DNA from: an uncultured bacterium
Lineage (GTDB): Bacteria; Patescibacteriota; Dojkabacteria; J137
Assembly (NCBI GenBank): GCA_963700155.1
Contig: OY969472.1
Span: 445,511 to 509,510, forward strand
DNA: 64,000 nt
Direction of reading: 5' to 3'
The notes under the pieces were generated by a model that saw only the letters and a list, made by a program, of their open reading frames with translations, made no database searches and was not told the DNA's origin. Both the position numbers and the translations under genes were made by a program. Positions 16,801 to 59,483 of this stretch are shown one piece after another (within the stretch, counting starts at the first letter, position 1; every line of letters starts with the position of its first letter).

Positions 16801-17012
16801 GTAATGTTAAGGTAATGTTCTCATCATCATATCAAGAAGCACCTATTGTAACTGTAACCGCCGTAAATTCATCTGTAATCTATAAAGTTAAAAATATTTC
16901 AAACAATGGATTTACAATCGAATTGAGTAATCCAGAGACAAGCGATATTGAATTTAATTGGATTACAGTTGGAATAACTCAAAGTACACCAGCTTCATAC
17001 CCACTTAATTAA
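13806..17012 (+). CDS. Large secreted fibre-like protein: Gly/Thr/Ser-rich beta-repeat body + tail-fibre intramolecular chaperone (Peptidase S74-like) domain + C-terminal H-type-lectin-like domain
   Basis: 1068 aa with an N-terminal TM/signal. CSSDVKLKQDIADINYGIGTVMQLRPVSFNWRNQ...LGFIAQDVNSILPNLV matches the Ser-Lys autoproteolytic chaperone domain of phage tail spikes and endosialidases. The terminal segment VKVMFSSSYQEAPIVTVTAV...NNGFTIEL...IEFNWITVG resembles an H_lectin domain. Confidence 0.7.
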   Translation: MHKVNSINRREFFIAIFSILFCIFILLNQRIQHVFAASNSTISIQGKIVDKNDGTNVTSSSVACINNGGPDACKFRVSIYDGNTGSDTLLWQETHTNVEIGDTGGIFNLNLNSICGSWDNPTTPCSGSGITWGSGDLYIQIDVDVDNDNSYSESFPAAPADRPLFTSVPYSYYSDVAGTVPANSLDFTEFKDTMTLDNSTIIDFGSSTNSFTLLNNGSGDGIVNLTSTGGFNIQSGGNTYAQFTAAGNVGIGLATAPDGKLQIKTDSTAASGSTYGLHVNGSQSTANSGSYYGVYSNPSYTAASGNTLSFLYGGNFSPYNGSTGTISYLYGLYSGPNNTVGGSIGSIYGLSAAPTNSSSGSITSMYGISAVTIKSGTGTIGTAYALYGQVRNNNATGAITTGYGLYIDTPATTGAITNNWGIYQADTAGLNYFGNKSSFGTTTATAYLNLAPSTTSQASLRLVSSAGTDPSSANSGDLWWNGTNLYFNDGGSNTDLLAGGGCGGSCFEQGGNAFGATGVLGTTDSNDVSVITNGTNKLYIQDSTGNVGVGNNNPTSLFSVGSSSEFQIDSSGNIVNLGGAAHSIANSSGALNIDSASTGAINIGTSSNAKTITVGNTTGATGLVFNSGTAGISSTSTATSGNAFSYTANSLSSGNGLYVTSTAASFSGSLAKIFWNPTSGSTATGDLFTIDTAGGSVLGNLFNVKDGGSSLFSVSQTQVTSTIPVQFNAPGDVAIAYDIVLTNPVASFVKSNSNLNLQAGASFASSNLTLSTFNSGMIVLDSATVYANGNVGIGVSPSYKLDVLASGTGVIARFNSANTTGCTLATGGTISCSSDVKLKQDIADINYGIGTVMQLRPVSFNWRNQDNPYKSLGFIAQDVNSILPNLVTVDSASGNMELNSIGFIPILTKAIQDQQEEITAMQSVLGISTNGSAAHILTQENILSYLNNTTIPNFKVKKITINEQLIAKSVVVVGDTTFIGKVSVGSDTAGKATIKAGESNVKVMFSSSYQEAPIVTVTAVNSSVIYKVKNISNNGFTIELSNPETSDIEFNWITVGITQSTPASYPLN
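15600..16700 (+). repeat. ~1.1-kb near-identical duplicated segment, copy A (partner at 21306-22415), mosaic with a more divergent ~200-bp core
   Basis: Direct nucleotide comparison: 15600-16010 versus 21306-21715 and 16215-16695 versus 21920-22415 differ only by scattered SNPs. 16010-16215 versus 21715-21920 is clearly more divergent. Confidence 0.8.
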
Positions 17013-22766: not shown

Positions 22767-22779
22767 GGATAAGTCACTT

Positions 22780-23907
22780 ATGCTAAAAGATAAATTTAAT
22801 AAGATTAAAAAAGTAATAGAAAAAAATAAACTCCTAAAAAGTTTTAAAGGAAGGCTTATTTACATATTAAAGCAATTAGATCAGAGATTTAAAATAATAA
22901 AAAGTTGGGGATTAAAGAATAGAAAACATCAATTTTTGGGTACGATATTCATTTTAATGATTCTTTTACCTATAGCTTCCATTTTAATGTTTTTATTTAC
23001 TAAACCTGTTCAAGCAGACTGGTTTAATGCAAATTGGAGTTTTAGAAAAAGAATAGATATAGTTAATAGTTCTGGTACAACACTTACAAATTTTCAGGTT
23101 AAATTTTCAATTGATACCGCTTCACTTTATTCAACTGGGAAATTAAGATCAGACTGTGGAGATATTAGAATTACTGACAATCAAGGTAAAATTCTTCCGT
23201 ATTGGATCGAGACATCAAATGTAGCCTGTAATGCAAATAGCAGTCAAACCATATGGACTAAAATTGACAGTATTCCTTCAAGTGGTGCTAATAATGTTAA
23301 ATATATCTATCTTTACTATGGGAATCCGCTAGCAACCTCAACACAAAATGGGAATGACACTTTTGATTTCTTTGATGATTTTTCATCATCAACCTTAAAT
23401 TCTAATAAATGGACTGCAACTGGGGCATATTCAATATCATCTGGGGCTTTAACAATAACAACTGGATCTGTATATTCGAATAATACTATAGTTTCATCAA
23501 ATCAAAATGAAATGTTCGAAATGAGAGCTAAATGGGCGACTACACAAACTTCATATTCAGGTATAATGATTTCAAATGCAAATAGCATTCAAGGTGGTAA
23601 TGCTGGCTCCAATAAACTTTCTATGTTGATGACAAATGCTGGAGTAGGTATTGATCAACAGGCATTTGCAGCTGATGGGACATCAGCAACGTATAATATT
23701 GTAAACAATATAACTCAGTTTACACCAACAGCAAACACATATTATTTTTCTGGATTTTCTCATACAACTTCAAACCTAAGATATTATCAAAATCGTTCAC
23801 AAACAAATTCATATTCAGATACTGCAAATTTTTCACCATATTTATTTTTGGGATATTTTGCAGGTTCAACTGCAGGCACTCGCAGATACAACAGATACAA
23901 CTATTGA
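22780..23907 (+). CDS. N-terminal fragment of a giant surface protein: signal-anchor + DUF2341 + start of a concanavalin-like module (reading frame lost near 23875-23890)
   Basis: It is paralogous to the N-terminus of 29356-35889 (NRKHQFLGTIFILMILLPIASILMF...VQADWFNANWSFRKRIDI versus NRRHQFLSILLILLFFLPIASVIT...VQAAWFNENWQYRQRLDI). The DUF2341 hallmark ...YIYLYYGNP is present. This ORF ends 50 nt after the next ORF starts, in another frame. Confidence 0.7.
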   Translation: MLKDKFNKIKKVIEKNKLLKSFKGRLIYILKQLDQRFKIIKSWGLKNRKHQFLGTIFILMILLPIASILMFLFTKPVQADWFNANWSFRKRIDIVNSSGTTLTNFQVKFSIDTASLYSTGKLRSDCGDIRITDNQGKILPYWIETSNVACNANSSQTIWTKIDSIPSSGANNVKYIYLYYGNPLATSTQNGNDTFDFFDDFSSSTLNSNKWTATGAYSISSGALTITTGSVYSNNTIVSSNQNEMFEMRAKWATTQTSYSGIMISNANSIQGGNAGSNKLSMLMTNAGVGIDQQAFAADGTSATYNIVNNITQFTPTANTYYFSGFSHTTSNLRYYQNRSQTNSYSDTANFSPYLFLGYFAGSTAGTRRYNRYNY

Positions 23908-26900
23908 TTTTGTTATAGCAAGAAAATTTTCAACTACAGATCCTAATCTTACTCTAGGCTCAGAAGAAATCACTCCTAATCCAACTGCTGATTGGAGTTT
24001 TGATGAGGGGCAAGGTCAAGTTGCATATGATAAGACATCAAACTCTAACAATGGACAACTCGGGTCTACATCAGGTTCTGATGCAAATGACCCTACTTGG
24101 GAAACCGAAGATCAGTGTGTTATAGGAAAATGTCTGCTTTTTAATGGAAGTAGTAATTATGTTTCTCTTACCCCTAACTTACAAACTATCAGTCAGATTA
24201 CTATTTCTGCTTGGTTTAATACGAATACAGCAACATTTCCAAATTCATTCAGAATGCTTTTTTCATCATCATCCGGATCATCTTATCTTGCTCTTGCTTA
24301 TACTGGGGCAAGTCCTTTTGTTTCATTTGATATAGGAGGTACTCAACACGCACTAAATTCCAATTTTACCCCTTTGTTAAATCACTGGTATTACGTTACC
24401 GCTACTTATGACGGTAACTTTATTAGAATTTATGTCGACGGTATTCTTAGGAATACTAGTGCTCAATATACAGGTACATTAAATGGGTTCACTTCAGGAG
24501 CTATGTATATAGGCAAATACATTGCTCCGGGATATGAATTCAGTGGAAAACTAGATGAAGTAAAAATTTATCCATATGCAAGATCAGCTGATCAAGTCAA
24601 AGTTGATTATAATGGTGGTGCAGAAGTTCTTGGAGATCAAACTCAAGCCTATCTTTCAAACGGATTAGTTGGTTATTGGAAGATGGATGAAAACACCTGG
24701 GGTACTCCAGATTGCTCTACTAATATTGTTCTAGATTCTTCAGGAAATAGTAATAACGGCAAGGCTTGTCCCAATGCTAGCGGACCTACTGGTGCTGCAG
24801 CTGGTAAGTTTGGTAATGGTGGTTTGTTTGATGGCTCTAATGACTATGTTGATACTGGTACTTCATATGAATCAACCTTCCAGGATAGCTATACATTTGC
24901 TTTCTGGACAAAACCTACTGATGGTCACCCTGCGGCCACTCAAATCCTTGCTGGTACTAATCCAGCAACAAACAATATTGTTAAAATATTCCTAAATACT
25001 GATGGAACGCTTGCTTATCAGTATCAAAATAATTCAATTGGGACAGTCGCTCAAACTGCTTCAGCTGTATTTTCTGATGGTCCTCAAAGTTCTTGGACTC
25101 ATATTGCTATTGTTGCAGATGCTAACATTAATGGTATTGGAGGTCTTAAGATTTATGTTAATGGACAATCTGCTACTTTAGATGGTGCTGCAACTGGCGA
25201 TACTTCTGGTATTACGTTCAGTACCTATACTAATTCTAATAATTTTTACTTTGGAGCCCGCAATAGTAATGGATCACCACAGAATTACTATGCGGGCTCA
25301 TTTGATGATTTAAGAATCTATAAAAGAGCTCTTTCTTCTTCTGATGTTCTATCTTTATATAACTGGGCCCCTGGACCTGTACTTAACTATAATTTAGACG
25401 AAAATACCGGCACCACTGCCCATGATACTAGTGGGTTCAATAATAATGGGACATTAACAAATGGTGCTACTTGGAATGCAGGTAAATATGGAAGTGGAGT
25501 ATCTTTTGACGGAGTCAATGATTATATTGATACACCTGATAGCAGTTCTCTTTCTCTTAACTCACAAATAACAATAGATGGATGGATAAAATTGGTTAGT
25601 GGCATGAGTACCAGCAGCACTCAAAAACAAACAATTGTTGATTCTGTAGATTACAACCTTTATCTTGATAATGCTGATGGGAAAGCTCATTTCGATCTAA
25701 ATGATTCAACTGCAGATAGTTTACTAGCTACTACAGACTGGAATTTAGGAGCAATATATGGATTTGATGGTATTGTTGGTACTATGGCTTATTTTAATGG
25801 AGCTTTATATGTTGCAGGATCGTTTAATGCAATTTGTGGTAATGCAACTTGTGATAGCGGAAATATCACTGCTCATCATATTGCAAAATGGAATGGATCT
25901 TCTTGGACTGCTGTCGGATATGGCGTGAGTTCTACAGTCTATTCCATTCAAGTGTACAATGGAGAACTATATTTAGGAGGGGCTTTTTCATCTATTTGTG
26001 GTAATGCAACTTGTGACAGTGGAAATATTACTACGAATCGAATTGCAAAATGGAATGGATCTTCATTTAGTACCGTGAGTTATGGTTTCAATAGTTCAGT
26101 CCGTACATTTGTAACATATAATGGAGAATTATATCTAGGAGGAAATTTTACAGTTATCTGTGGCAATACTGCATGTAACAGTGGGAATGTTACCACTAAT
26201 TCTATAACAAAATGGAATGGATCCTCGTTTAGTACTGTAGGATATGGAATGAATAATCCAGTCTATACGGTTAGTATATATGACGGGAAATTAATACTAG
26301 GCGGAGCTTTTAGCAGTATCTGTGGCAACACAGCATGCAACAGTGGAAATGTTACCACTAATTATGTAGCAAGGTGGGATGGATCCACTTTTAGTACATT
26401 TGGGTTTGGAATGAATGCAAATCCTAATTCTTTTGAAATATACAATGGGACATTATATACCGGAGGGAATTTTACAGCTATTTGTGGTAATACTGCATGC
26501 AACAGTGGGAATACAAATACTAATTTTATAGCAAAATGGAATGGATCTTCTTGGACTGCAGTATCCTATGGGCTATATAATCCTTTCGGAAGGGTTGATA
26601 CGTTGGGGGTCTACAATGGTAAATTATATGTGTCTGGAACTTTTACAGGGATATGTAATGATGCGGCTTGTAGTAGTGTTACTTCAGCGAATGATTTAGC
26701 TGCATGGGATGGATCTTCTTGGAGTCTTGTAGGAAATGGAATAGAGATAGGGAGGAGTATCAGTTACTTTATAAATTATAATGGGAATTTATATTTTTCG
26801 ACTAATGCAAGTTATCTTTGTGGAAATAGTACTTGTGATAGTGGGAATATTCCTATTTATAATTTTGGACAAATAGGGACAACAAATGTAAAAACAGTTA

Positions 26901-29332
26901 CATCTACTACTTCTTCATGGAATGCAAATACCTGGTATCACATTGCAGCTACATACAATAAATCAACTATAAGATTATATGTCAATGGTACTTTACAAGG
27001 TAGCGCAACTACAAGCATAACCATAGAAAACACTAATAATGAATTTTATATTGGGAAAATGCATGGCTCGAGCTATGGTCAGGATTGGGGGGGTGATATT
27101 GGTGAAAGCTTATTTAAAGGAACTTTGGATAATCTTTATATTTATAACTATGCTAGAACTTCATCTCAAATTATTGAAGACATGAATGGAGGACATCCTA
27201 TTGGTGGGTCTCCTTTAGAATCTCCGGCAATACACTGGAAGATAGATGATATGCAAGGTGGGACTGCAAACAATTCTGGTAATTTAGGCTCTAGTTTTAA
27301 TGGGACTATCAGTGGTGGAGGTTGGCGAAATCATGATTCTTGTAAAGTTAATGGGTGCTACCAATTTACCGGTGCTAATGATTATATAGAAAAGACAGGA
27401 TCTACATTCTTTGATGGATTAACTACTATGACTGCCTCTTTATGGATTAAACCTCAAACATTTCTATTCCCTGATGATGCTATCTTAGCAAAAAGAGATG
27501 CATCAGATAATGGGTTTTTTATCTATACTGATCATTCAAATGGTTCTGCTCTAAGAGTTGGGATTTCTAATGGAGCAACAGATGTCAGTAATTATTGTAC
27601 AACTCCTACTGGAATACTAGCATTATCAACTTGGGCACATATTGCTGTAGTTTATGATGGTTCTCAAGATACTAATAACAGAATCAAAGTTTACAAGAAT
27701 GGGAATCTTGTAACTTGTACAGCCACTGGAACTATCCCTACTGCATTGCGAACTAGTACAGCACCTCTAAGACTAGGGAGAAGTGCTTTTGCTACACAGT
27801 ATGGCTATTATGATGAAGTAAAAATTTACAATGTAGCCTTAACTTCAGATCAGGTTAAGATTGATATGAATAATGGTGCATCTGAAAACTTTGGAAGTTC
27901 TGGAAGTAGTGAAGCTGCTCTGTTAGATGATGGAGCTGGAAATCCACCGGTGGGCGAATGGAAAATGGATGAAAATAGTGGCACAGTAGTGGCAGACACT
28001 AGTGGGAATGGCCATGCTGGATCAGTCAGCGGTACAACGACTTCAATCTGGCAGCAAGGCAAATACGGTTCGTCACTCAAGTTTAATGGGTCTAATAATT
28101 ATATAAGCTTTGGAAACTATCTGGGCCTAACTAATACACTTACAATCAGCATGTGGGTAAAACCTAGCTCATCTCAGGCTAATGCATATGCCACTATCCT
28201 GAGAAAATCAACCACAGCCAACACTGGGTATGGGATAGAGCAAAACAACACAACTACTAATCAATACTATTTCTGGTATGGGAATGGGTCTTCTTTAGAA
28301 TGCGCAACTACTTATTTTTCTCTAACCGCAGGAACCTGGCAGAATTTAGAAATTACAAAATCTGGAACAGCTATTATTATTTACATTAATGGTACCGCAG
28401 TAAACAGATGTACAGCAACGAGCGGTACTGTTGCTACTAACCCAGACTCCTTCACCTTAGGAAGCTACAGTGGAGGAAGTGCTAGGTGGTGGGCTGGGCA
28501 GCAAGACGATATTAAAATGTATGATTATGCACGTACTCAATCTCAAGTGGAGTATGACTACAATCGCGGTGCTCCTTTTGCTTGGTGGAAGCTAAATGAA
28601 TGCCAGGGGTCTACTGCTCATGACTCCACTGGTAATAATTACAACGGAACTATTACAATCACTGCAACCGGGGGTAATACTAATGGGATTGGAGATTGTA
28701 CAACGTCAACCAGTGCTTGGGGCTCAGGTGCCAGTGGAAAATATGGATCAAGTTTATTTTTTGATGGAAATGGTGACTATATTAATACAGGGAATTCTTT
28801 TGAAAAGACTTTTCAATCAAGTTATTCATTATCTATGTGGGTAAAACCAACAGATGGACACCCTAGTTCTCCTGGGTCAACTTTTATTGGTACAAGTAAA
28901 TCTTCAGGATCTTTAGTGAACTTAATTCTAGAATCTAATGGGAAACTTCGTTTACAATATGGTAATGAAACAAATTCTGTGAATGCAGAAACGGCAAATG
29001 CAATATTTAATGATGGACAAGTAACACAATGGACTCAAATAGTAGTGACAGCTAATGCAAATACAAATGGTCCAGATGGAGTTAAAATCTATTTAAACGG
29101 GGTAAAGCAGCAGCTAGGAACAAGTATTTATAGTGGAGATACAACAGGGCTTGATTTTTCTTTATATAGTAATACAAATAATGTCTATATTGGAGTTAGA
29201 GATTCACTAGGTTTTCCAACTACAAATTGGGTTAGTGGACCAATGGATGATATAAGAATCTATAATTATGCTTTATCATCAAATCAAATTCAACAACTTT
29301 ATAACAATGGAGCAGCATATTTCGGCTTATAG
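23858..29332 (+). CDS. Main body of the same giant surface protein: multiple Laminin_G_3/concanavalin-A-like lectin modules + Cys-containing delta-60-like propeller repeats (continuation after a +1 frameshift)
   Basis: Recurrent module ends match the LamG_3 terminal motif: L(D/S)DLRIYKRALSSSDV, LDEVKIYPYARSADQV, YDEVKIYNVALTSDQV, and so on. The ORF begins with a TTG at 23858 in frame +1 relative to the upstream fragment. The sequence ...TIDFVIARKF continues the jelly-roll started upstream. Confidence 0.75.
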   Translation: MQVQLQALADTTDTTIDFVIARKFSTTDPNLTLGSEEITPNPTADWSFDEGQGQVAYDKTSNSNNGQLGSTSGSDANDPTWETEDQCVIGKCLLFNGSSNYVSLTPNLQTISQITISAWFNTNTATFPNSFRMLFSSSSGSSYLALAYTGASPFVSFDIGGTQHALNSNFTPLLNHWYYVTATYDGNFIRIYVDGILRNTSAQYTGTLNGFTSGAMYIGKYIAPGYEFSGKLDEVKIYPYARSADQVKVDYNGGAEVLGDQTQAYLSNGLVGYWKMDENTWGTPDCSTNIVLDSSGNSNNGKACPNASGPTGAAAGKFGNGGLFDGSNDYVDTGTSYESTFQDSYTFAFWTKPTDGHPAATQILAGTNPATNNIVKIFLNTDGTLAYQYQNNSIGTVAQTASAVFSDGPQSSWTHIAIVADANINGIGGLKIYVNGQSATLDGAATGDTSGITFSTYTNSNNFYFGARNSNGSPQNYYAGSFDDLRIYKRALSSSDVLSLYNWAPGPVLNYNLDENTGTTAHDTSGFNNNGTLTNGATWNAGKYGSGVSFDGVNDYIDTPDSSSLSLNSQITIDGWIKLVSGMSTSSTQKQTIVDSVDYNLYLDNADGKAHFDLNDSTADSLLATTDWNLGAIYGFDGIVGTMAYFNGALYVAGSFNAICGNATCDSGNITAHHIAKWNGSSWTAVGYGVSSTVYSIQVYNGELYLGGAFSSICGNATCDSGNITTNRIAKWNGSSFSTVSYGFNSSVRTFVTYNGELYLGGNFTVICGNTACNSGNVTTNSITKWNGSSFSTVGYGMNNPVYTVSIYDGKLILGGAFSSICGNTACNSGNVTTNYVARWDGSTFSTFGFGMNANPNSFEIYNGTLYTGGNFTAICGNTACNSGNTNTNFIAKWNGSSWTAVSYGLYNPFGRVDTLGVYNGKLYVSGTFTGICNDAACSSVTSANDLAAWDGSSWSLVGNGIEIGRSISYFINYNGNLYFSTNASYLCGNSTCDSGNIPIYNFGQIGTTNVKTVTSTTSSWNANTWYHIAATYNKSTIRLYVNGTLQGSATTSITIENTNNEFYIGKMHGSSYGQDWGGDIGESLFKGTLDNLYIYNYARTSSQIIEDMNGGHPIGGSPLESPAIHWKIDDMQGGTANNSGNLGSSFNGTISGGGWRNHDSCKVNGCYQFTGANDYIEKTGSTFFDGLTTMTASLWIKPQTFLFPDDAILAKRDASDNGFFIYTDHSNGSALRVGISNGATDVSNYCTTPTGILALSTWAHIAVVYDGSQDTNNRIKVYKNGNLVTCTATGTIPTALRTSTAPLRLGRSAFATQYGYYDEVKIYNVALTSDQVKIDMNNGASENFGSSGSSEAALLDDGAGNPPVGEWKMDENSGTVVADTSGNGHAGSVSGTTTSIWQQGKYGSSLKFNGSNNYISFGNYLGLTNTLTISMWVKPSSSQANAYATILRKSTTANTGYGIEQNNTTTNQYYFWYGNGSSLECATTYFSLTAGTWQNLEITKSGTAIIIYINGTAVNRCTATSGTVATNPDSFTLGSYSGGSARWWAGQQDDIKMYDYARTQSQVEYDYNRGAPFAWWKLNECQGSTAHDSTGNNYNGTITITATGGNTNGIGDCTTSTSAWGSGASGKYGSSLFFDGNGDYINTGNSFEKTFQSSYSLSMWVKPTDGHPSSPGSTFIGTSKSSGSLVNLILESNGKLRLQYGNETNSVNAETANAIFNDGQVTQWTQIVVTANANTNGPDGVKIYLNGVKQQLGTSIYSGDTTGLDFSLYSNTNNVYIGVRDSLGFPTTNWVSGPMDDIRIYNYALSSNQIQQLYNNGAAYFGL
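25780..26880 (+). repeat. ~8 tandem ~50-aa coding repeats (delta-60 / beta-propeller-like, each with a CGN(A/T)(T/A)C(D/N)SGN insert)
   Basis: (A/S)ICGNATCDSGNIT...IAKWNGSSWTAVGYG...V(Y/F)...YNGELYLGG(A/N)F(S/T) recurs about 8 times. The (A/T)KWNGS(S/T)(W/F)(S/T) units resemble the delta-60 repeat (IAKWDGSSWSALG). Confidence 0.65.
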
Positions 29333-29355
29333 TAATAATATATTGAATATTAGAA

Positions 29356-32300
29356 ATGAGTAAAAATTTGAAAAAAATAACAAAGAACATAATTAAAATA
29401 AGAAAAAAGATTTCTAATTCGTCTTTTTACATAAAAAGATTCTCTCCTCTGAAGAATAAATTTTATAATTGCATTTTTAATATAAAAACCTGGGCTTTTA
29501 AAAACAGACGTCATCAATTTTTAAGTATTTTATTAATTTTACTATTCTTTTTACCCATTGCCTCAGTTATAACTACACTTTTATCAACACCTGTACAAGC
29601 AGCATGGTTTAATGAAAATTGGCAATACAGACAAAGACTTGATATTACAATAACATCATCTAGTAGTGATATCTCGAATTTACAAATGTATTTTACAGTT
29701 AATACATCTGTACTTATATCAACTGAAAAACTTCAATCTTCGTGTCAAGATTTACGTTTTACAAGTGTTTCGGGACGGCTTCTGCAATATTATATAGATT
29801 CTGGATGTAACACAACAGCTACAAAAATTTGGGTAATGGCGGACTTAATTCCTAAAAATACAACTACTTATCAAATATATATGTACTATGGAAATCCAGC
29901 GGCATCAGCTGGATCAGAATCAGGCTATTTTGATAATGTAGTTGGATTAGCAGCTTATTGGACTTTTAATGATGGAAGTGGTATCAGTGTTGCTGATTCT
30001 TCAAAAAATGCATTTACAGCAACAATAAATACTGGAACCTTTACAACCGGTAAGTTCGGGACAGCTTTAAGTAAAAACGGTTCAGGGCAAGGGGCAACTG
30101 CTACATATGGAGCAGGAAGTGATTTAGACTTCCCGGCAAATACACAAGTTACTGTAGAATTTTGGTTGAACTCACCTACTTCTCACACCAGCCGTCTTAT
30201 TAATGCTATTGCATCTGGAGGATTAAATGTCCCAAATATTGGTACAGCTTTGTACTTTGGGGTATTTTCCGGTAATACTGTAACTTTTAATAGTGCCATC
30301 TCCTATGATGGAGCGTGGCACCATTATGCCTTAAGTTATAATGGTACAAGTGTAAGTTACTATAAAGACGGTTCTTTTGTATCTAGTCAAAACCTTGCAG
30401 CTAATTGGACAACAGGCTCAAAGACTTTTTACCTTGGTGGAGATGCTTCATATCCTTTAAATGGAGCACTTGATGATGTTAAAGTTTATCGAACAAGTAG
30501 AAATTCAACACAAATACTTGCTGATTTCAATAATACCAGTTGTGGAGGATTGGTATGCACAATTGCAACATCACCTGTTGGCACAGTTAATCCTAGTTCA
30601 GTTTCTTTTAACTCTGAAGAAATTGGCCCTGGTCCAGTTGCAAATTGGGGTCTCGATGAAGGGTATGGAGATAGTTCTACAGGAAATGGTCCTGTTGCAT
30701 ATTGGAACCTAGATGAAAATACTAACATAACAGCTACTGATTTGAGTGGGAATGGTAATACTGGAACATTAACTGGCAGTCCAACATGGGTAAGTGGAAT
30801 ATATAATTCTAGTGTAAATTTTAATGGTAGTAGTAATTATATAACAATAAATAATTCCACCTCTTTAAATATTAGAGCTCCAATAACTTTATCTGCCTGG
30901 ATTTACCCTACATCAACTGCTTCATTTCAAAATGTAATATCTAAAAGAAATACCACTTCTCCTTATTCACTGCGAATTAATAACGGAACAAATCTTGAAT
31001 ACTATTTTCATGACGGGACAGCTTACCGTGAATATATTAAAACTGGAGTTATAAAACTAAATACATGGCAGTTTGTTGCTGCAACAAATGATGGTACTAA
31101 TATTAATTTATATGTAAATGGGGTTAATGTCTTATCAACTACTACACCATATACCCCTGCTACAACTACAGATACTATTCAAATAAGTGGTTGGCACGGT
31201 ATAAATGAATTGTTTTCAGGGTCAATTGATGATGTGAAAATTTATAATTACGCCAGAAGTGCCAATCAGGTTATTGAAGACATGAATAGAGATGTCCATT
31301 CTAATGGTACAGCAGGAAAAAGTGCTTATGGATTTAACTACGGTGCTACTTGGCAGACTGAAGATCAATGTGTTGTAAGAAAATGTTTAAGCTTTAATGG
31401 TACTAGTAACTATGTATCTCTTTATCCTAACTTACAAACAACTAGTAAAATTACAATTTCATCATGGATTAATACAAGAACTTTATCATTACCATCTAAC
31501 TTTAGAATGATTTTTTCTTCTTCAGATGGAGCATCATACCTTGCACTTGTAACAAATGGTTTAGCAACTCCTTTTGTCTCATTTGATATTGGGGGAACTC
31601 AACGAGCTCTAAATTCTAATTTTATTCCTAAAATAAATCATTGGTACTATGTTACCGCTACATATGATGGTAATTATATAAGAATTTATGTAGATGGAAT
31701 CCTTCGTAATACTAGTGCACAATATGTAGGTTCCTTAGCAGGATTTAGCTCTGGTTCAATGTACATAGGCAAATATTTAGCAGCTGGATATGAATTTAGC
31801 GGTAAACTAGATGAATTAAAAATTTATCCTTATGCGAGAACAGATGATCAAATAAAAAGTGATTACAATTCAGCTGCAGAGTTGCTTGGAAAACAAAATC
31901 AAACTTATTTAAGTAATGATTTAGTAGGGTATTGGAAGATGGATGAATCATCTTGGAATAATAATTGCTCTACTACCTCTGTAATCGATTCTTCTGGTAA
32001 TGGATTTAATGGTAAATCATGTCCTAATGGTAGTGGACCTACTGGAGGTGCAGTAGGTAAGTTTGGCAATGCTGGATATTTTGATGGAGTTAATGACTAT
32101 GTTGAAGTAGCTGATAATGATTTATTGGATCCTGCTAATGCAATTACAGTCGCTATGTGGTTTAGACCAGACCAGACACTTGTTGATTTTCAGGCAGTTC
32201 TTGGGAAAGGAGGAGGGGCTTCCTTCGAGAAAGGGTATGAATTTGCAACAAGCAACGATCAATTTGGTTTCTGGGTCAATGGTAATACCCATATTGCAAC

Positions 32301-35300
32301 TACAACAAAACCAGCTAATGGGGAACTAACTTTTTGGGTAGGTACCTATGATGGTAAGACTATCAAACTTTACAAAAATGGATCACTTGTAAGTAGTACT
32401 AATTATGTTGGAACAATTACTAATACAACCTTACCATTCAGGATTGGGAGACCTGCAGAAGATGGTGGTAATAATCTTTATGTTCAAGGAATGTTTGATG
32501 ATGTGAGAGTATACAATAGAGCATTTACTCAAGCTGAAATTACAAGTTTATATAACTGGGCGCCTGGACCAATAGAGTATCTAAAATTCGATGAGAATAC
32601 AGGATCATCGATTAATGACAGTAGTGGAAATAATAATAAAGGAACTTGGAATGGAACATTAGGCTCACAATGGAGTACAGGAAAAGTTGGAACTGCAGGT
32701 GAATTCAATGGTACAGATAACTATGTAAATATCTCTGATTCTTCGACTCTAGATATAACCGGAGACATGACATTAAGCACATGGATAAAACCAAATGCAA
32801 CACAAAATGCATCTGCAGATATTATAAGTAAACATGGGAACGGAGGATTCCTTATCGAGCAAAATAACACAACAAATAATCAATATTATTTTGGTTGGGA
32901 TAGTACTGGATCCGGCGGTTGGAATTGCTTAACAACATACTTTAGTTTAACAGGAGGAGTATGGCAGCATTTAGAAATAGTTAAAAGTGGAGCTGTTGCC
33001 AAATATTATATAAACGGAGTTTCAACTGGAAGTTGTACAGGAACTAATCAAGCAATTTCTGCAAATTCTTTAGCATTAAAAATAGGTTCATGGAGTTCTT
33101 CTGGCAATAGATTCTGGAATGGATTAATTGATGATTTTAAATTTTACAATTATGCTCGAACATCTGGACAGGTAGTTGAAGATATGAATGGAGGGCATCC
33201 TGTAGGTGGCTCGCCCATAGCCTCTCAAGCTATTTACTACAACTTTGATGAAGGGAATGGGAACACCGCAGCAAGCTCTAATCCAGTTGCTTACTGGAGA
33301 TTTGATGAAAATACAGGAACTATAGCAACAGATTCCGGGAGCGGTGGTCATAATGGAACACTTACTAATAGTCCGTCTTGGATTAAAGGAGTTTATGAAT
33401 CAGCCTTAAATTTTACTGCAGCACTTAATCAAAATGTAACAACATCATCAGTTGTATCTAGTGCTACTACAAATATTACAATGGAGACATGGGTATATTG
33501 GACGAACGGCCCAACTGGGAATTCTACTTTCTACTATAATGGGAACTCTGGATCAAACGGATATGGTCTTAAGTTGAATAACGGATCAGGATCAGCAGGA
33601 AATAAAGTAACAGTAATACTTGGAGGTTTAGCATTTGATGTTACAAGCAGCACTTTGGTACTTACTCCTAAAGTCTGGACACATATTGCACTTACTCGAA
33701 GTGGTACCACATGGACTCTTTATAAAAATGGAATTCTTGACAGCATTGGAACAACAAATCCAGGCACCCCAACTACAAGTACTATTATTGGGAGTGGATT
33801 CGATGGTATTCTTGACGATTCAAAATTTTATAATTATGCTCGTACACCAGCTCAAATAATTGAAGATATGAACCGAGATGTGCATAACAATGGATTTTTG
33901 GGAAGTACTGATAATGCATTTAATTATGGAGGAACATGGAATTCTGGATCAAGTTGCAAAGTTAACGGATGCTTAGATATAGACTCTGCTACTGATTACG
34001 TCACTCCAGGAGATATTTCACTTACTGATGGATTAACTCAAATGAGCATTAGTATGTGGATCAATCCAGCTATTACTGCAAATTCTGAAATAATCGGGAA
34101 GTGGGGAGATACTTCAACTACTTCTAATTTTCTTGTACGAACAAACAGCCCTGGAAGTGAGATTGTTGTATTCATTGCTTCTTCATTAAGTGATAATGGG
34201 TCTAATTATTTCTATACAACAGATTTGAATCTATCTAATGGTGTTTGGACCAAACTACAAATTATATATGATGGGACACAAAATGCGACGAATAGGATAA
34301 CAATCTATAGTAATGGAAGAAAAGTAAATGGTGGTTACATTGGAACTATTCCAACATCTATGACTTCCGGAAGCACTTCAAACTTAAAGTTAGGAGATGC
34401 AGATTTTAGTGTATTTACAGCATTGCCAGCTAAATATGATGATCTTAAAATATATAATACAGCTATTACAGCAGAACAGGCTCAAATTGACCTGAATTCA
34501 GGATATAGTGAAAACTTTGGAGTCGGTGCGCCGTCTGAAGCAAGTTTGCTTTCAGACGGCGCAGGTAATTCTCCTACCAGATATTGGAACCTTGACAGCA
34601 ACACAGGAACTACTGCTTATGATATTTCAGGAAATAATAGCAATGGAAGTTTTGTTGGAACACCTGTTTGGACTCCAGGCAAGTATGGATCCAGTTTAAC
34701 TTTTGCTGATGGACAGGATATTAATGTACCTGATTACTCACTCGCAGGTGCTTTTACAATGCAGTATTGGTATAAGACAAATGACACAACATCTGTAAAA
34801 ATATCCCTTGGAGAAGATAGTGGTACTTCAGGAGGTGGTCCCAAAATAGGTATCTCAAGCAGTACATTTTTTGTGCGTATAATTAGCAGTACTGATAGTA
34901 CTATTAATGGGAAAACCGACGGTAAATGGCATTTCGTTTCCATTACCCGTAATGCTAGTGACAAAGTAGATTTATATCTAGATGGTGGCACGGCAAATAG
35001 ACTTTTTTCTGATACTGCTCAAACAGGTACTTTTACTTTATCTAATCTTGGTTCAAATAGCGATAACAGTCAGAACTTTATAGGAACCTTAGATGATGTA
35101 AAAGTTTACGATTATGCTCGTACTCAAGCCCAACTAGCATATGATTACAATCGCGGCGCTCCAGTGGGGTGGTGGTGGCTTGATGAATGTCAAGGATCAA
35201 CCGCTTATGATGCTTCAGGCAATGGAAATAATGGAGCAATAACAATCGGAACTGGAGCTGGGACAGGCCATATTGATTCTGTAGGAAATTGTACTACTTC

Positions 35301-35889
35301 TGGAACTGCTTGGTATAACGGTTTGAATGGTAAATTCAATTCTAGTTTAAGCTTTGATGGGATAGATGATTATGTGAGTATGACAGCTTCTCTTAGTAGT
35401 TTTAGCAGTCTTTCGACTGGTACAATTACAGGGTGGTTTAAGAGAGCGAATACAAGTAATAGAGATATTATTTTCAGTTTAGGAGAATCTTCAACAAACG
35501 ATCGTTTTACTCTCGAGATTAATGTTGCATCAAACCAATTTTTCAGAGTTTTAGCTAGAGAAGCAAATAGTAATGTTTTAGACATTTATTCAACAAAAAC
35601 ATATGATGATACTTCTTGGCATAATTTTGCAGTTGTTAATGACAATACAAGTACTATAAAAGTATATATCGATGGTTTATTACAAACTACGATTGGGACA
35701 CAATCAAATAGTTGGTTTAATACTGTCACAAGTAAAGATTACATGAATATTGGAAAAGATACAATTGGTTTATTTTCAGGGCAAATTGATGACTTTAGAA
35801 TCTACAATTATGCACTGTCTGCAGATCAAATCAAGCAAGTTTACAACGGTGCATCTGTATTTTTTGGTCCAACATCAGGTACTCCATAA
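29356..35889 (+). CDS. Giant surface protein (2177 aa): basic cytoplasmic tail + signal-anchor TM + DUF2341 + ~10 Laminin_G_3/concanavalin-A-like lectin modules; intact paralogue of 22780-29332
   Basis: Continuous ORF. Its N-terminus is paralogous to 22780. Several modules are about 70-75% identical to those of 23858-29332 (for example WQTEDQCVVRKCLSFNGTSNYVSL... versus WETEDQCVIGKCLLFNGSSNYVSL...). It has repeated ...DD(V/F)K(I/V)YNYAR(S/T)..Q(V/I) module endings. Confidence 0.8.
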   Translation: MSKNLKKITKNIIKIRKKISNSSFYIKRFSPLKNKFYNCIFNIKTWAFKNRRHQFLSILLILLFFLPIASVITTLLSTPVQAAWFNENWQYRQRLDITITSSSSDISNLQMYFTVNTSVLISTEKLQSSCQDLRFTSVSGRLLQYYIDSGCNTTATKIWVMADLIPKNTTTYQIYMYYGNPAASAGSESGYFDNVVGLAAYWTFNDGSGISVADSSKNAFTATINTGTFTTGKFGTALSKNGSGQGATATYGAGSDLDFPANTQVTVEFWLNSPTSHTSRLINAIASGGLNVPNIGTALYFGVFSGNTVTFNSAISYDGAWHHYALSYNGTSVSYYKDGSFVSSQNLAANWTTGSKTFYLGGDASYPLNGALDDVKVYRTSRNSTQILADFNNTSCGGLVCTIATSPVGTVNPSSVSFNSEEIGPGPVANWGLDEGYGDSSTGNGPVAYWNLDENTNITATDLSGNGNTGTLTGSPTWVSGIYNSSVNFNGSSNYITINNSTSLNIRAPITLSAWIYPTSTASFQNVISKRNTTSPYSLRINNGTNLEYYFHDGTAYREYIKTGVIKLNTWQFVAATNDGTNINLYVNGVNVLSTTTPYTPATTTDTIQISGWHGINELFSGSIDDVKIYNYARSANQVIEDMNRDVHSNGTAGKSAYGFNYGATWQTEDQCVVRKCLSFNGTSNYVSLYPNLQTTSKITISSWINTRTLSLPSNFRMIFSSSDGASYLALVTNGLATPFVSFDIGGTQRALNSNFIPKINHWYYVTATYDGNYIRIYVDGILRNTSAQYVGSLAGFSSGSMYIGKYLAAGYEFSGKLDELKIYPYARTDDQIKSDYNSAAELLGKQNQTYLSNDLVGYWKMDESSWNNNCSTTSVIDSSGNGFNGKSCPNGSGPTGGAVGKFGNAGYFDGVNDYVEVADNDLLDPANAITVAMWFRPDQTLVDFQAVLGKGGGASFEKGYEFATSNDQFGFWVNGNTHIATTTKPANGELTFWVGTYDGKTIKLYKNGSLVSSTNYVGTITNTTLPFRIGRPAEDGGNNLYVQGMFDDVRVYNRAFTQAEITSLYNWAPGPIEYLKFDENTGSSINDSSGNNNKGTWNGTLGSQWSTGKVGTAGEFNGTDNYVNISDSSTLDITGDMTLSTWIKPNATQNASADIISKHGNGGFLIEQNNTTNNQYYFGWDSTGSGGWNCLTTYFSLTGGVWQHLEIVKSGAVAKYYINGVSTGSCTGTNQAISANSLALKIGSWSSSGNRFWNGLIDDFKFYNYARTSGQVVEDMNGGHPVGGSPIASQAIYYNFDEGNGNTAASSNPVAYWRFDENTGTIATDSGSGGHNGTLTNSPSWIKGVYESALNFTAALNQNVTTSSVVSSATTNITMETWVYWTNGPTGNSTFYYNGNSGSNGYGLKLNNGSGSAGNKVTVILGGLAFDVTSSTLVLTPKVWTHIALTRSGTTWTLYKNGILDSIGTTNPGTPTTSTIIGSGFDGILDDSKFYNYARTPAQIIEDMNRDVHNNGFLGSTDNAFNYGGTWNSGSSCKVNGCLDIDSATDYVTPGDISLTDGLTQMSISMWINPAITANSEIIGKWGDTSTTSNFLVRTNSPGSEIVVFIASSLSDNGSNYFYTTDLNLSNGVWTKLQIIYDGTQNATNRITIYSNGRKVNGGYIGTIPTSMTSGSTSNLKLGDADFSVFTALPAKYDDLKIYNTAITAEQAQIDLNSGYSENFGVGAPSEASLLSDGAGNSPTRYWNLDSNTGTTAYDISGNNSNGSFVGTPVWTPGKYGSSLTFADGQDINVPDYSLAGAFTMQYWYKTNDTTSVKISLGEDSGTSGGGPKIGISSSTFFVRIISSTDSTINGKTDGKWHFVSITRNASDKVDLYLDGGTANRLFSDTAQTGTFTLSNLGSNSDNSQNFIGTLDDVKVYDYARTQAQLAYDYNRGAPVGWWWLDECQGSTAYDASGNGNNGAITIGTGAGTGHIDSVGNCTTSGTAWYNGLNGKFNSSLSFDGIDDYVSMTASLSSFSSLSTGTITGWFKRANTSNRDIIFSLGESSTNDRFTLEINVASNQFFRVLAREANSNVLDIYSTKTYDDTSWHNFAVVNDNTSTIKVYIDGLLQTTIGTQSNSWFNTVTSKDYMNIGKDTIGLFSGQIDDFRIYNYALSADQIKQVYNGASVFFGPTSGTP

Positions 35890-55931: not shown

Positions 55932-56408
55932 TTACACAACCTCATCATAATCCACCAAAAACCATTTATTATTTCTTAGTTCTAATGATTTTCTCAAATC
56001 ATAAAATTGAAATTCAAATTCTTCAGTATTTTCTTGAGATTTCTCAAAAGTTATTTCTATATCATTATTAAATTTGAAATAACCACCACTTTCTTCTAAT
56101 GAAATATCTATCAAGTTCAATTTTCTAGTTGATAGTTCTTCCAAAGTATCTGAAATTTCTTGATCATTAGAAGTCTTTATATCCAGAATCGTTCTTTTTT
56201 TTTCTAGAATTTTCCAGTACCGAGTTAAGTGAATTATAAATTCATAAAGACTATAGGTTCTCTTCTTGCCATGAACTTCATATGTCCTTTTTACTCTAAA
56301 ATCTCCTAAATCAACCCACAAATGTGTTCCTATCGACCACCAAATCTTTTGTAAAGGTCTGTTTAAAATTCTATTTATATATTTTTCTGAATTAGTAATT
56401 TTCTTCAT
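55932..56408 (-). CDS. Hypothetical protein
   Basis: 158-aa ORF, convergent with 55141-55905. No motif recognised. Confidence 0.4.
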   Translation of the reverse strand: MKKITNSEKYINRILNRPLQKIWWSIGTHLWVDLGDFRVKRTYEVHGKKRTYSLYEFIIHLTRYWKILEKKRTILDIKTSNDQEISDTLEELSTRKLNLIDISLEESGGYFKFNNDIEITFEKSQENTEEFEFQFYDLRKSLELRNNKWFLVDYDEVV

Positions 56409-56439
56409 AATCTATTATAGCAAATGGAATGTAACAGAA

Positions 56440-56640
56440 TTTTATTGTATAATTCATTAAATGCATTAACAGTTCGGATTAACGTCACCGAGCAAGCTGG
56501 AAGAAGAAATTATATTAAAGTAGATCTTCCCGGGACAAGCCCGTTAAAGCTTATGACAAGAGTCCTGGAGCTCCTTCAGGAAATAGAGGTGGTAACGCTC
56601 TTTCAGAGTCCTCTTAATTCAGATATTATATAAATATTAA
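56440..56640 (+). promoter_or_regulatory. Candidate T-box riboswitch leader for valS (valine GUC specifier candidate; T-box-like antiterminator element)
   Basis: A relatively GC-rich untranslated region immediately upstream of valS. 56581-56613 reads AAAUAGAGG-UGGUAAC-GCUCU-uuc-AGAGU-CCUC, where the T-box consensus is AAUUAGGG-UGGNACC-GCG. That is a 7-nt UGGN-type bulge flanked by two short helices. Upstream, AACGUCACC (56481-56489) could present a GUC (Val) specifier followed by a purine. No canonical downstream terminator is visible. Confidence 0.45.
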
Positions 56641-56651
56641 TACGATTTAAA

Positions 56652-59483
56652 ATGGCTTTACCACAGGGTCCTTACAATCCAAAAGAATCAGAAGCAGAAA
56701 TGCTTAAATTCTGGCTGGATAACAAATTTTATAAACCAGAATATAATCCAAAAACAGATAAGGTCGAAACTACAGAAGAGATGAAAGCGGACGCGCGTAA
56801 GCCATGGGCTTTAATTTGCCCTCCACCTAATGCTTACGCGCGTCCGCACATCGGCAATATCTCTGGTTATGCATACCAAGATGCAATGGCAAGATATGCA
56901 AGAATGAATGGTAAAAAAGTTTTGGTACTTCCAGGAAAAGATCATGCTGGGCTTGAAGGTGAAGGAGTTTTTGTTAGAGAAGTTTTAGAAAAACAGGGTA
57001 GATATAAATTCGATATGAAGAGAGAAGACTTCTATAACGAAATGATGGAGTTTTTCGAAAAGAATATGGATATAGCTTTAAAAGATGAAAGAGAAATTGG
57101 GCTTTCTGCAGATTTCGATAGAAATACTTTTACACTTGATCCTGATATAGTCGAAACTGTTTTAGATACTTTTGTTGAAATGTATAAAGCAGGAATGATT
57201 TATAAAGGAGTTAGAATTGTTAACTGGGACCCAAAAGCAAGAAGCGTTATAGCGGACAATCAATGTGAAAGAGAAGAACGAGAAGGAACTTTGTATTATA
57301 TAAAATATCCGATAGTTGATAGTTCTGAATTTATTACAGTAGCAACAACAAGACCAGAAACTATGTTTGGCGATACTGCAGTTGCTTTTAATCCAGATGA
57401 TAAAAGATATAAAAATTTAATTGGTAAAAAAGTAAGAATTCCACTAACCGATATTGAAATACCAATAATTACCAGTTTTAGAGTTTTAACGGATTTTGGC
57501 ACAGGAGCCTTAAAAATTACTCCAGCTCATGCACAAGATGATTACCAAATTATGATGGAGTGGAATAGCCAAAATCCGGATAACAAGATTAGCTATCGAA
57601 ATGTTATAGGACAAGATCTTAAACTAACAGGAGCTGTTCCTGCAAAATATAAAGGAAGAAAGTACAAAGAAGCACTACCTGAAATAATTGAAGATTTAAA
57701 ACAAGCTGGGAATTATGTAAAAGAAGAAAAAATCAAACAAAATATATTAATATCCGAAAGAACGAAAGCTATTGTTGAACCAGTAATTTCTTCACAATGG
57801 TATTTGAAATACGACAAAGAAGACCACAATATTAAAGAAGCTGCAATGAAAATGGTTCAAAATGGAGAAGTTAAGATTCATCCCGAGAATATGGTTCAAA
57901 AATTCAATCACTGGATGGAGAATTTAAGAGATTGGGCAATTTCGAGATCATTGTGGTGGGGATATAGACTTCCTGTTTGGTATGCTGGCCAGATTTCCGA
58001 AGAAATTGATGAAAATGGACAGGTCAAAGAATTTATTGAAATTAATGGTAAGAAAGAAGAGTTAGACTATTCAAATCCAGACCACCTAAGAGTTCAAAAA
58101 CTCTCTCCTGATATAAATAGTATCAACTTAATTTTAATCCCAGGTAAGCATGGTTATGCACACAAAGAACTTTATCCTACAATAAAAACTAAATTTAAAA
58201 ACACCTTAGAAATTAGAGTTAACAATATAGACAGCCCGAGTACCAATGATTATATAGAGGCTCTAAAGAAAATAGAATTTAACCAAAAAGATATAGTTTT
58301 AGCCCATTCACTCGGGTGTAGAGCCATTATTAGGTACATTTTGGATAATAAACTCAAGTTAAAACATCTTATACTTTTAGCTCCCGGTGCCAGATTAGAG
58401 GGTAGAAAAGATGGGAAAGATTCAAAATACCTGTATCTAATTACTAGTATTAAAGACTATAACAAATTAAGCAATTTAGTTGAAAAAATTACAGTAATAT
58501 ATTCAGATGATGATCCATTAGCATCAAAAGAGGATTTTGAAAAATTTATATTACTTTTAGGAGATAAAGCTGAAGGCATCCTAGAACAAGGTAAGGGGCA
58601 TTATTGTGAAGAGAAAGGAACATCTGATTCCAAAATATTAGATAGTATTCTTGCTCCCTACTCATCTGAACTTACAAACTCAATATGGCACCAAGATGAT
58701 AACGTTTTAGACACATGGTTTTCATCAGGACAGTGGGTTTATGCAATATTATCAAAATACAACTTAATGGATACATTCTTCCCTACAAATGTTTTAGTTT
58801 CAGCTTCAGATATTTTAGAAAATTGGGATTCAAGAATGATGATGTTTACTTACTTCAAACATAAAAATATTCCATTTAAAAACTTATTCTTAACAGGATT
58901 AGTTCTCGGAAAAGACGGACAAAAGATGAGCAAATCTCGAGGTAATATAGTTGATATTGATAGAGTAAAAGATATATTTGGAACAGACTCATTAAGAATG
59001 GCATATTTCTATCAAAATTCAGCAGGTGGATCTTATGTAATTTCTGATGACAAGTTAAAAAACTTTAAACAATTTAATAACAAACTTTGGAACGCTTCAA
59101 AATTTGTCTTAATGAATACAGAAAACTTAAAAGAATTTGAGGGAGATGAGTCTATTAGTAAGTGGAGCAATGAACTTTTACAATATATTGCTGATCTAAA
59201 AATTAAAATTACTGAAAATATAGAAAATTATGAATTTGGATATGCGACAGAAACACTTTATCAGGAATTCTGGCATACTTTCTGTGATAAATATATAGAA
59301 GAAAGCAAAGTACACTTATTAAATCAATCTGAAAGAATGGAAGTTCAAAGTACACTTTTATATACACTTAAAGAGTTTATAAAAATGCTTCACCCATTTA
59401 TCCCATTTATAACTGAAAAGATCTGGCAAGAAGTTCCTAAAAATAACTATGACCACAAAAGTTTAATGTACACCACTTGGTAA
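56652..59483 (+). CDS. valS: Valyl-tRNA synthetase with an in-frame inserted YdeN/RBBP9-type alpha/beta serine-hydrolase domain (~aa 485-675)
   Basis: ValRS hallmarks: ICPPPNAYARPHIGN (HIGH-type), the editing-domain GTGALKITPAHAQDDYQI, ISRSLWWGYRLPVWY, DTWFSSGQW, and KMSKSRGNIVD. Between LPVWY... and ...DTWFSS lies a segment of about 190 aa. It contains IPGKHGYAH, VLAHSLGCRAIIRYIL (the nucleophile elbow), LLAPGA, IYSDDDPLAS (Asp) and GKGHYCEEKGTSD (His). These match B. subtilis YdeN (LVAHSLGC..., SKDDQIVPF, HGGHFLEDEGFTS). This ValRS has no long C-terminal coiled-coil tRNA-binding domain. Confidence 0.85.
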   Translation: MALPQGPYNPKESEAEMLKFWLDNKFYKPEYNPKTDKVETTEEMKADARKPWALICPPPNAYARPHIGNISGYAYQDAMARYARMNGKKVLVLPGKDHAGLEGEGVFVREVLEKQGRYKFDMKREDFYNEMMEFFEKNMDIALKDEREIGLSADFDRNTFTLDPDIVETVLDTFVEMYKAGMIYKGVRIVNWDPKARSVIADNQCEREEREGTLYYIKYPIVDSSEFITVATTRPETMFGDTAVAFNPDDKRYKNLIGKKVRIPLTDIEIPIITSFRVLTDFGTGALKITPAHAQDDYQIMMEWNSQNPDNKISYRNVIGQDLKLTGAVPAKYKGRKYKEALPEIIEDLKQAGNYVKEEKIKQNILISERTKAIVEPVISSQWYLKYDKEDHNIKEAAMKMVQNGEVKIHPENMVQKFNHWMENLRDWAISRSLWWGYRLPVWYAGQISEEIDENGQVKEFIEINGKKEELDYSNPDHLRVQKLSPDINSINLILIPGKHGYAHKELYPTIKTKFKNTLEIRVNNIDSPSTNDYIEALKKIEFNQKDIVLAHSLGCRAIIRYILDNKLKLKHLILLAPGARLEGRKDGKDSKYLYLITSIKDYNKLSNLVEKITVIYSDDDPLASKEDFEKFILLLGDKAEGILEQGKGHYCEEKGTSDSKILDSILAPYSSELTNSIWHQDDNVLDTWFSSGQWVYAILSKYNLMDTFFPTNVLVSASDILENWDSRMMMFTYFKHKNIPFKNLFLTGLVLGKDGQKMSKSRGNIVDIDRVKDIFGTDSLRMAYFYQNSAGGSYVISDDKLKNFKQFNNKLWNASKFVLMNTENLKEFEGDESISKWSNELLQYIADLKIKITENIENYEFGYATETLYQEFWHTFCDKYIEESKVHLLNQSERMEVQSTLLYTLKEFIKMLHPFIPFITEKIWQEVPKNNYDHKSLMYTTW

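Follow-up and report, generated by a model that had tools for sequence, protein, structure and literature searches.

Ultrashort T-box riboswitches are known from the ileS leaders of actinobacteria such as Mycobacterium tuberculosis, M. smegmatis and Nocardia farcinica (the 'class II' of TBDB), and in these RNAs Stem II and the Stem IIA/B pseudoknot compensate for the missing platform that binds the tRNA elbow (PMC7583486; PMC12647780). All ultrashort T-boxes have been stated to regulate ileS (bioRxiv 10.1101/2023.02.28.530422, 2023 preprint). Here we describe the leader of valS, the gene for valyl-tRNA synthetase (ValRS), in a stretch of 64,000 nucleotides (nt) from an uncultured Dojkabacteria bacterium of the candidate phyla radiation (CPR; GenBank assembly GCA_963700155.1, contig OY969472.1, positions 445,511 to 509,510 of the forward strand). 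This whole stretch is referred to as the window, and all coordinates of the leader are window coordinates. From its sequence features the leader is almost certainly a real, miniaturised T-box riboswitch. Its read-out is probably translational, although we hold this with only moderate confidence, and would hide the start codon rather than a Shine-Dalgarno (SD) sequence.

Architecture of the valS leader

The valS start codon is preceded by 243 nt of non-coding DNA, which follows a divergently oriented gene at 55932-56408. The full Rfam model RF00230 (1-219) aligned to 56457-56616 with a score of 54.9 bits (E = 1.8e-11 locally) in a scan run in E-value mode. Across both strands of the 64-kb window the E-value was 3.2e-9, and the T-box was the sole Rfam match with E < 0.1. 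The score falls short of the gathering score of 93 because 86 Stem I model positions are replaced by 24 nt; a default scan of the window at the gathering score returned nothing and the match surfaced only in E-value mode. The RF00230 search suggested by the initial annotation was hence significant by E-value while remaining under the gathering score (54.9 vs 93). R1, a covariance model made from related leaders, scored 154 bits on the leader and recognised one site only within the window. The minimum free energy (MFE) of the whole leader was no better than that of shuffled sequences (z = -0.8), so that MFE alone is uninformative for this AU-rich leader RNA. The following features were delimited.

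56448-56453, plus strand: probable -10 box TATAAT with TG before it, read from the sequence
56457-56616, plus strand: T-box leader, aptamer and discriminator (RF00230, 54.9 bits; R1, 154 bits over 56460-56616)
56472-56493, plus strand: ultrashort Stem I, GUUCGG/CCGAGC, 6 base pairs (56472-77 with 56488-93) and a 10-nt terminal loop AUUAACGUCA (covariation)
56484-56486, plus strand: specifier GUC (Val), then the conserved purine A56487, in the last part of the Stem I terminal loop
56499-56530, plus strand: Stem II, GGAAGA/UCUUCC (56499-504 with 56525-30; covariation and Rfam alignment)
56531-56552, plus strand: Stem IIA, CGGG 56531-34/CCCG 56540-43, and the IIA/B pseudoknot, loop AAG 56537-39 with CUU 56550-52 (conservation)
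56553-56581, plus strand: linker with conserved AAGAG at 56558-62, then Stem III (RNAfold)
56563-56581, plus strand: Stem III, UCCUGGAG/CUUCAGGA with loop CUC, immediately 5' of the discriminator (RNAfold and covariation)
56586-56613, plus strand: antiterminator-type (antisequestrator) helix, consisting of A1, bulge and A2 (sequence, RF00230 and covariation)
56605-56659, plus strand: candidate sequestrator hairpin that encloses the AUG and shares 56605-10 with the antiterminator (predicted; marginal for the window alone)
56652-59483, plus strand: valS, ValRS of 943 amino acids, the gene presumed to be regulated (open reading frame list; Pfam tRNA-synt_1 and Anticodon_1)
56424-56633, plus strand: 69-codon, ATG-initiated open reading frame (ORF) overlapping the leader, reported by the ORF finder only and judged not to be a gene

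The T-box element AAAUAGAGG-UGGUAAC-GCUCU...AGAGU-CCUC spans 56581-56613. Within it, A1 is formed by GAGG (56586-89) and CCUC (56610-13), followed on the 5' strand by the 7-nt bulge UGGUAAC (56590-96) and by A2, in which GCUCU (56597-601) pairs with AGAGU (56605-09) around a UUC loop (56602-04). The initial annotation had described an antiterminator-like element composed of these helices, this bulge and this loop behind a preceding AAAUAGAGG, and each motif was located where it had been placed. The isolated helix has a predicted energy of -6.9 kcal/mol, and the UGGU of the bulge can pair with the 3' ACCA of a tRNA, with its U facing the discriminator base A73.

The GUC that had been proposed as a specifier about 100 nt upstream is located at 56484-86, 106 nt 5' of the UGGU, in the loop of the covarying Stem I hairpin. 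The combination of this hairpin and its specifier with the significant, sub-threshold RF00230 match bears out the proposal of a T-box leader for tRNA-Val. Stem I is reduced to a 6-base-pair hairpin with a 10-nt loop, and the AG bulge and distal loop of a long Stem I are absent. The architecture that had been anticipated, a Stem I with a specifier loop and a K-turn, was therefore recovered in part: the hairpin with its specifier loop is present, in the ultrashort form that has no distal platform, and a K-turn is not evident. The UGA of the GA motif in RF00230 aligns to UUA, and the 5' side of the motif is missing from the relatives as well. Stem II contains S-turn-type purine strands, GAA on the 5' side and AGUAGA (56519-24) on the 3' side, and the GAA/AGUA positions were matched by RF00230.

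Either TATAAT or TGnTATAAT is kept at an equal distance 5' of Stem I in the alignment of relatives. The TATAAT at 56448-53 was not listed by a simple promoter scan, there being no match to a -35 box. If this -10 box is used, the transcript would probably begin a few nucleotides ahead of Stem I.

Related leaders and covariation

Relatives were identified with the first 300 amino acids of ValRS, which retrieved Candidatus Dojkabacteria metagenome-assembled genomes (MAGs) with 63-83% identity and more distant CPR genomes. Further leaders were obtained from a metagenome scan with the IIA/B sequence, from contigs encoding ValRS homologues and with R1, which was built from 15 leaders. In total, R1 recognised 29 T-boxes in 37 sources (individual loci are given as L numbers), including Dojkabacteria, one Saccharibacteria MAG and metagenome contigs. 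The IIA/B-region pattern, which covers 23 positions with 20 specified bases, retrieved 8 metagenome loci, all of which were T-box leaders.

In a MAFFT alignment of 15 sequences, 87.4% of the cells were paired as compared to 31-57% in slid controls, and 24 of the 34 pairs showed compensatory changes, giving a covariation score that none of 500 shuffles reached. Among the 29 leaders aligned with the covariance model, 93.3% of the cells were paired and 28 of the 31 pairs were compensatory, with the reservation that this alignment leans towards the structure, which the MAFFT result does not. RNAalifold applied to the MAFFT alignment recovered Stem II, Stem IIA and the discriminator, but register shifts kept it from finding Stem I and Stem III, a problem that was overcome with an explicit structure and the covariance model.

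The compensatory changes affected six of six pairs in Stem I, five of six in Stem II and all six counted pairs in Stem III, and both A1 and A2 covary in the relatives. The Stem IIA region is nearly invariant; the pairs of Stem IIB, the pseudoknot, do not vary and are therefore supported by conservation and not by covariation. Stem I occurs as GUUCGG/CCGAGC, UCCAAG/CUUGGA, CCUAAG/CUUAGG, AUUCUG/CAGAAU, CCCUAG/CUGGGG and other variants, and the loop is closed by ...GUC-A. All tRNA-contacting elements are kept across about 29 leaders, so that the description of the T-box as possibly degenerate found no support.

The codon in the loop agrees with the downstream gene. It is GUC-A in the tabulated valS leaders and AUC-A before an IleRS gene in the Saccharibacteria MAG (L019 2168-2327). 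Other loops carry AAC-A before aspS (L022, loop CCAACA) and GAC-A in L025, where the gene lies off the contig, and the loop GUCGCGA of the argS leader in L027 has an ambiguous specifier register. The presence of AAC, an Asn codon, before the AspRS gene in L022 points to tRNA-Asn being sensed by a non-discriminating AspRS. The bulge also varied among the Val-specific T-boxes, with UGGA in L017, UGGC in L030, CGGU in L036 and an 8-nt bulge UGGGUAAU in L006. Read from the sequences, these variants imply that tRNA-Val in those lineages has other discriminators or that pairing there is relaxed.

In several Dojkabacteria relatives, a gene for a 23S-rRNA-intervening-sequence protein (PF05635) is inserted between the T-box and valS, with E-values of 1e-38 to 1e-42 in the two ORFs tested (L001 and L016). 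The loci are:

L001, 2625-2984: PF05635 gene
L006, 2627-2866: PF05635 gene
L008, 2554-2940: PF05635 gene
L012, about 2560-2900: PF05635 gene
L016, 2384-2761: PF05635 gene

Where this gene intervenes, the T-box is located 400-600 nt 5' of valS and would first control the small ORF. The valS gene itself was called as two to three consecutive ORFs in L028-L031, possibly due to frameshifts, assembly errors or genuine splitting. In the window, residues 494-654 of ValRS (58131-58613) correspond to an inserted Ser_hydrolase domain (PF06821, alpha/beta hydrolase, E = 2e-10) between the halves of the catalytic core. In relatives L009-L015, match lengths point instead to an insertion of about 116 amino acids within the first 300 residues.

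Read-out and rival explanations

The segment 56300-56800 contained no terminator-like site, and no U-run follows the discriminator. The absence is real, since relatives outside the clade of the window leader, which have the same ultrashort aptamer, carry terminators at that exact position. Each is a hairpin of -23 to -35 kcal/mol with U6-U9 behind it and overlaps the 3' strand of the discriminator. The terminator-bearing T-boxes are:

L008, 2331-2540
L017, 2709-2920
L022, minus strand, 2747-2906 and downstream
L025
L027, 2235-2420
L030, 1262-1500
L036, 1219-1460

The start codon of valS (56652-54) has no SD sequence upstream. More broadly, an SD-like 4-mer was present at -20..-4 in 4 of 95 ORFs in the clade and in 1 of 37 in the window, where the regions upstream of the genes are AU-rich and without GGAGG-like motifs. 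For several window genes, TATAAT occurs just 5-10 nt before the ATG, as at 56414-56419 (minus strand) upstream of the gene at 55932-56408, and such short distances suggest leaderless or near-leaderless mRNAs. A sequestrator of an SD sequence was considered for valS and rejected in this lineage without SD motifs; a hairpin to the AUG region stands in its place. With neither a terminator nor SD sites in the lineage, we infer that the start codon itself may be sequestered.

The predicted sequestrator in the window pairs AGAGUC (56605-10) with GGCUUU (56654-59), UUAA (56614-17) with UUAA (56647-50) and UC (56619-20) with GA (56644-45). A hairpin from within or just after the CCUC to a position at or over the AUG could be drawn in 14 leaders that abut valS, 9 of which have a distance of 26-38 nt between the discriminator and the AUG. 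The start hairpin is formed by CUCAUAAAUU with AAUUUAUGAG in L005, by CAUAAAUC with GAUUUAUG in L033 and by AUAAUAAGC with GCUUAUUAU plus AGCC/GGCU in L009. In L005, L010, L011 and L026, CUCAUAA pairs with UUAUGAG, so that the same CUC(A) can pair either with the (U)GAG of the T-box or with the aUGAG of the start. The clearest sequestrators of the set were found in L006 and L016, where the entire 3' strand of A1 (UCCCU and CCUUG) pairs with AGGGA and CAAGG a few codons inside the first ORF and thereby encloses the AUG, in folds of -22 to -23 kcal/mol with no U-run after them.

As the spacers could not be aligned, covariation was tested by comparing the two segments of each leader (own pairs) with all combinations of segments from different leaders (mismatched pairs), using 20,000-50,000 permutations. 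For broad segments, the mean energies were -7.9 kcal/mol for own pairs versus -4.7 kcal/mol for mismatched pairs, and no permutation reached the observed value. When the last 3 nt of A1 plus 12 nt were paired with AUG-16..+5 in the 14 leaders, the values were -6.4 versus -3.6 kcal/mol (p < 2e-5), and with the addition of three leaders that have another ORF after the T-box (17 in all) they were -9.3 versus -6.4 kcal/mol (p < 2e-5). Two control segment pairs gave no signal in this test (p = 0.19 and 0.85). In dinucleotide shuffles, 11 of the 14 leaders were better than their own shuffled sequences at p <= 0.1, with a mean z of -2.4.

The accessibility of the start codon points in the same direction. 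The median cost of opening AUG-6..+5 was 6.8 kcal/mol for valS starts that adjoin the T-box and 2.1 kcal/mol for those that do not (Mann-Whitney p = 0.0025), the latter set including T-boxes parted from valS by an inserted gene, so that the contrast is between adjacent and non-adjacent starts. The median for the other genes in the window was 3.1 kcal/mol. When the antiterminator was forced, the mean opening cost decreased from 5.9 to 3.2 kcal/mol, with a drop in 11 of the 14 leaders. The initial annotation had noted the lack of an obvious terminator and raised the possibility of translational control, and these tests of the start region agree with it.

If the leader works as T-boxes are known to do, uncharged tRNA-Val (anticodon GAC, discriminator A73) would bind the specifier and the UGGU bulge and lock the GAGG/CCUC and GCUCU/AGAGU helix, which charged tRNA could not do. 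When uncharged tRNA-Val is lacking, the 3' strand of the helix (56605-13) would be free, together with the AU-rich spacer, to pair with the start region (56644-59), placing the AUG and its flanks in a hairpin that would disfavour loading of the 30S subunit. When it is present, the shared strand would be captured, the hairpin would lose its G-C base and valS would be translated.

Several observations weigh against start-codon sequestration. In the window, the sequestrator duplex is only modestly better than expected, with -7.3 kcal/mol versus -4.25 +/- 1.6 kcal/mol for shuffles (z = -1.9, p about 0.05), the margin between the MFE of the OFF state and the antiterminator is similarly modest (-9.4 vs -6.9 kcal/mol), and the valS start region ranked only 8th of 39 window genes for structure. 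The covarying hairpin overlaps A1 by only 0-3 nt in many leaders, and a strict test of the antiterminator 3' strands alone against the start region (codons 2-8) yielded p = 0.10 (n = 14) and p = 0.056 (n = 17), borderline at best. Three clade members (L014, L021 and L024) showed no complementarity between discriminator and start, with an open AUG in L014 and L021. All energies come from nearest-neighbour models of AU-rich RNA, and the kinship of the leaders inflates some of the statistics. Finally, neither the window nor any of 33 loci contained a tRNA according to ARAGORN, which leaves no tRNA-Val anticodon or discriminator for comparison with the leader.

Among the alternatives, a genuine T-box with transcriptional output fares best, although we consider it unlikely. 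The hairpin after the discriminator would then be a termination signal, acting as a terminator without a U-tract, through Rho-dependent termination or as a pause. Most T-boxes act on transcription, close relatives that have this aptamer bear the canonical terminators listed above, a conserved hairpin is located directly 3' of the discriminator and the spacer of L021 holds a small GC hairpin followed by U5. However, the window leader has no terminator-like site, and in its clade the 3' arm of the hairpin is followed by the AUG and coding sequence rather than by a U-run. The 3' arm also tracks the start codon at spacings of 26-58 nt, for which a terminator would have no reason, and the AU-rich, C-poor spacer is unlike a rut site.

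It is quite unlikely that the aptamer binds tRNA-Val but no longer switches, as a relic, or that it acts via mRNA stability or access of RNases. This explanation draws on the marginal sequestrator of the window, on the three clade members that lack one and on the small overlap with the antiterminator in many leaders. Against it, the specifier, S-turn, IIA/B, linker, Stem III and UGGU have been maintained across ValRS lineages that are 63-83% identical. Their compensatory maintenance indicates selection on tRNA binding and 3'-end sensing that is hard to explain without an output, and the start-proximal hairpin covaries as well.

It is exceedingly improbable that 56424-56633 encodes a 69-amino-acid protein and resembles a T-box RNA only by coincidence: the ORF finder does report an ORF of 69 codons that begins with ATG, but it has no Pfam match, its start sits 5' of the conserved -10 box, its frame is broken in 21 other related leaders (with longest stop-free frames over the T-box core of 18-49 codons, mostly without ATG), and the substitutions keep base pairs and not codons in a conservation pattern typical of paired RNA, which upholds the earlier view that the ORF is spurious.

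Start-codon sequestration thus remains our preferred explanation, and a further pairing may add to it. Codons 3-5 of valS contain UUACCAC (56658-64), which resembles the 3' end of a tRNA and forms a perfect complement to the GUGGUAA of the T-box (56589-95). In the unconstrained fold of the window leader, the two segments pair and so close a multiloop with the start-codon hairpin inside it. In most clade members, the T-box bulge pairs in such folds with UUACCA or GGACCAUA in the early coding region. Energies between the 5' segment of the T-box and the early coding region were -8.9 kcal/mol for T-box-adjacent valS genes and -7.0 kcal/mol for the others (p = 0.0002). The mRNA could in principle occupy the site of the tRNA acceptor end in cis as an 'ACCA mimic' that tRNA-Val must displace, a model that we consider rather improbable. 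If true, the mimic would create a double lock in which the ligand and the initiation region compete for the same seven nucleotides. Codon usage for Leu-Pro and Gly-Pro-Tyr together with shared ancestry could yield the complementarity without selection.

The initial annotation had also advised a search for similar leaders at other aminoacyl-tRNA synthetase genes. Neither the Rfam scan in E-value mode nor R1 detected a T-box at the other such gene in the window, which is of the Trp/Tyr type (class I; 4109-5134, minus strand). This gene has an unusually long upstream region of 358 nt (5135-5492). Elsewhere, the window encodes a protein of 1068 amino acids with a Peptidase_S74 (endosialidase chaperone) domain (13806-17012), followed by three giant ORFs (17499-35889) of 1755, 1824 and 2177 amino acids with a G+C content of 0.35-0.39, as compared to about 0.30 in the rest of the window.

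Comparison with known T-box systems

The leader places a T-box that looks functional in the CPR, for which no earlier report was found. The remark in the initial annotation that T-boxes are not well documented in this kind of organism fits the searchable literature, in which we found no paper that ties a T-box to the CPR, Patescibacteria or Saccharibacteria, without this being proof of absence; the same element is nevertheless common in related MAGs. Sensing of amino acid starvation in reduced, host-dependent bacteria is under-annotated because the Rfam threshold of 93 misses the members tested; the scores of six relatives were 32-56 bits, far under this value.

An ultrashort design that was described as limited to actinobacterial ileS is here used for valS, with related loci at ileS, aspS and argS. 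An ultrashort Stem I does not imply translational control, since relatives join it to strong terminators. These terminator-bearing relatives conflict with the general view that a transcriptional T-box requires a long Stem I and contact with the tRNA elbow (review PMC7583486). If the start codon is indeed the target, then translational control by a T-box would not be tied to an SD sequence. The findings bear on which T-box class is ancestral and on how riboswitches gate initiation in bacteria without SD sequences.

Compared with the canonical transcriptional T-boxes of Firmicutes (RF00230; for example tyrS and glyQS of B. subtilis), the window leader has the same specifier with a purine after it, the T-box sequence AAnnAGNGGUGGUAnC, the 7-nt bulge and the fold of Stem III and antiterminator, and it likewise precedes an aminoacyl-tRNA synthetase gene that would be controlled by its own tRNA. 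Unlike these, it lacks about 60 nt of Stem I, including the AG bulge, the distal loop and the elbow contact, it has no terminator and no evident GA/K-turn motif, and it scores 54.9 bits against the threshold of 93.

With the translational ileS T-boxes of actinobacteria the leader shares a short Stem I whose terminal loop holds the specifier, the absence of both a distal elbow-binding platform and a terminator, an S-turn in Stem II, the IIA/B pseudoknot, a linker rich in purines, Stem III and a UGGN discriminator. The proposed output is also alike, a helix that competes with the discriminator and would mask the initiation region. The two differ in gene and ligand, which here are valS and tRNA-Val (GUC), and in phylum, which here is Dojkabacteria. 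They also differ in the masked element, as the AUG and its AU-rich flanks would take the place of an SD sequence, and in the competing helix, which here shares fewer nucleotides with the discriminator. Furthermore, relatives of the window leader with the same aptamer use canonical terminators.

The nearest counterparts are the T-boxes in CPR genomes and metagenome contigs (L008, L017, L019, L020, L022, L025, L027, L030 and L036), which have the same ultrashort Stem I, IIA/B pseudoknot and discriminator and were recognised by R1. Unlike the window leader, they end in strong terminator hairpins with U-runs, and some of them sense other tRNAs.

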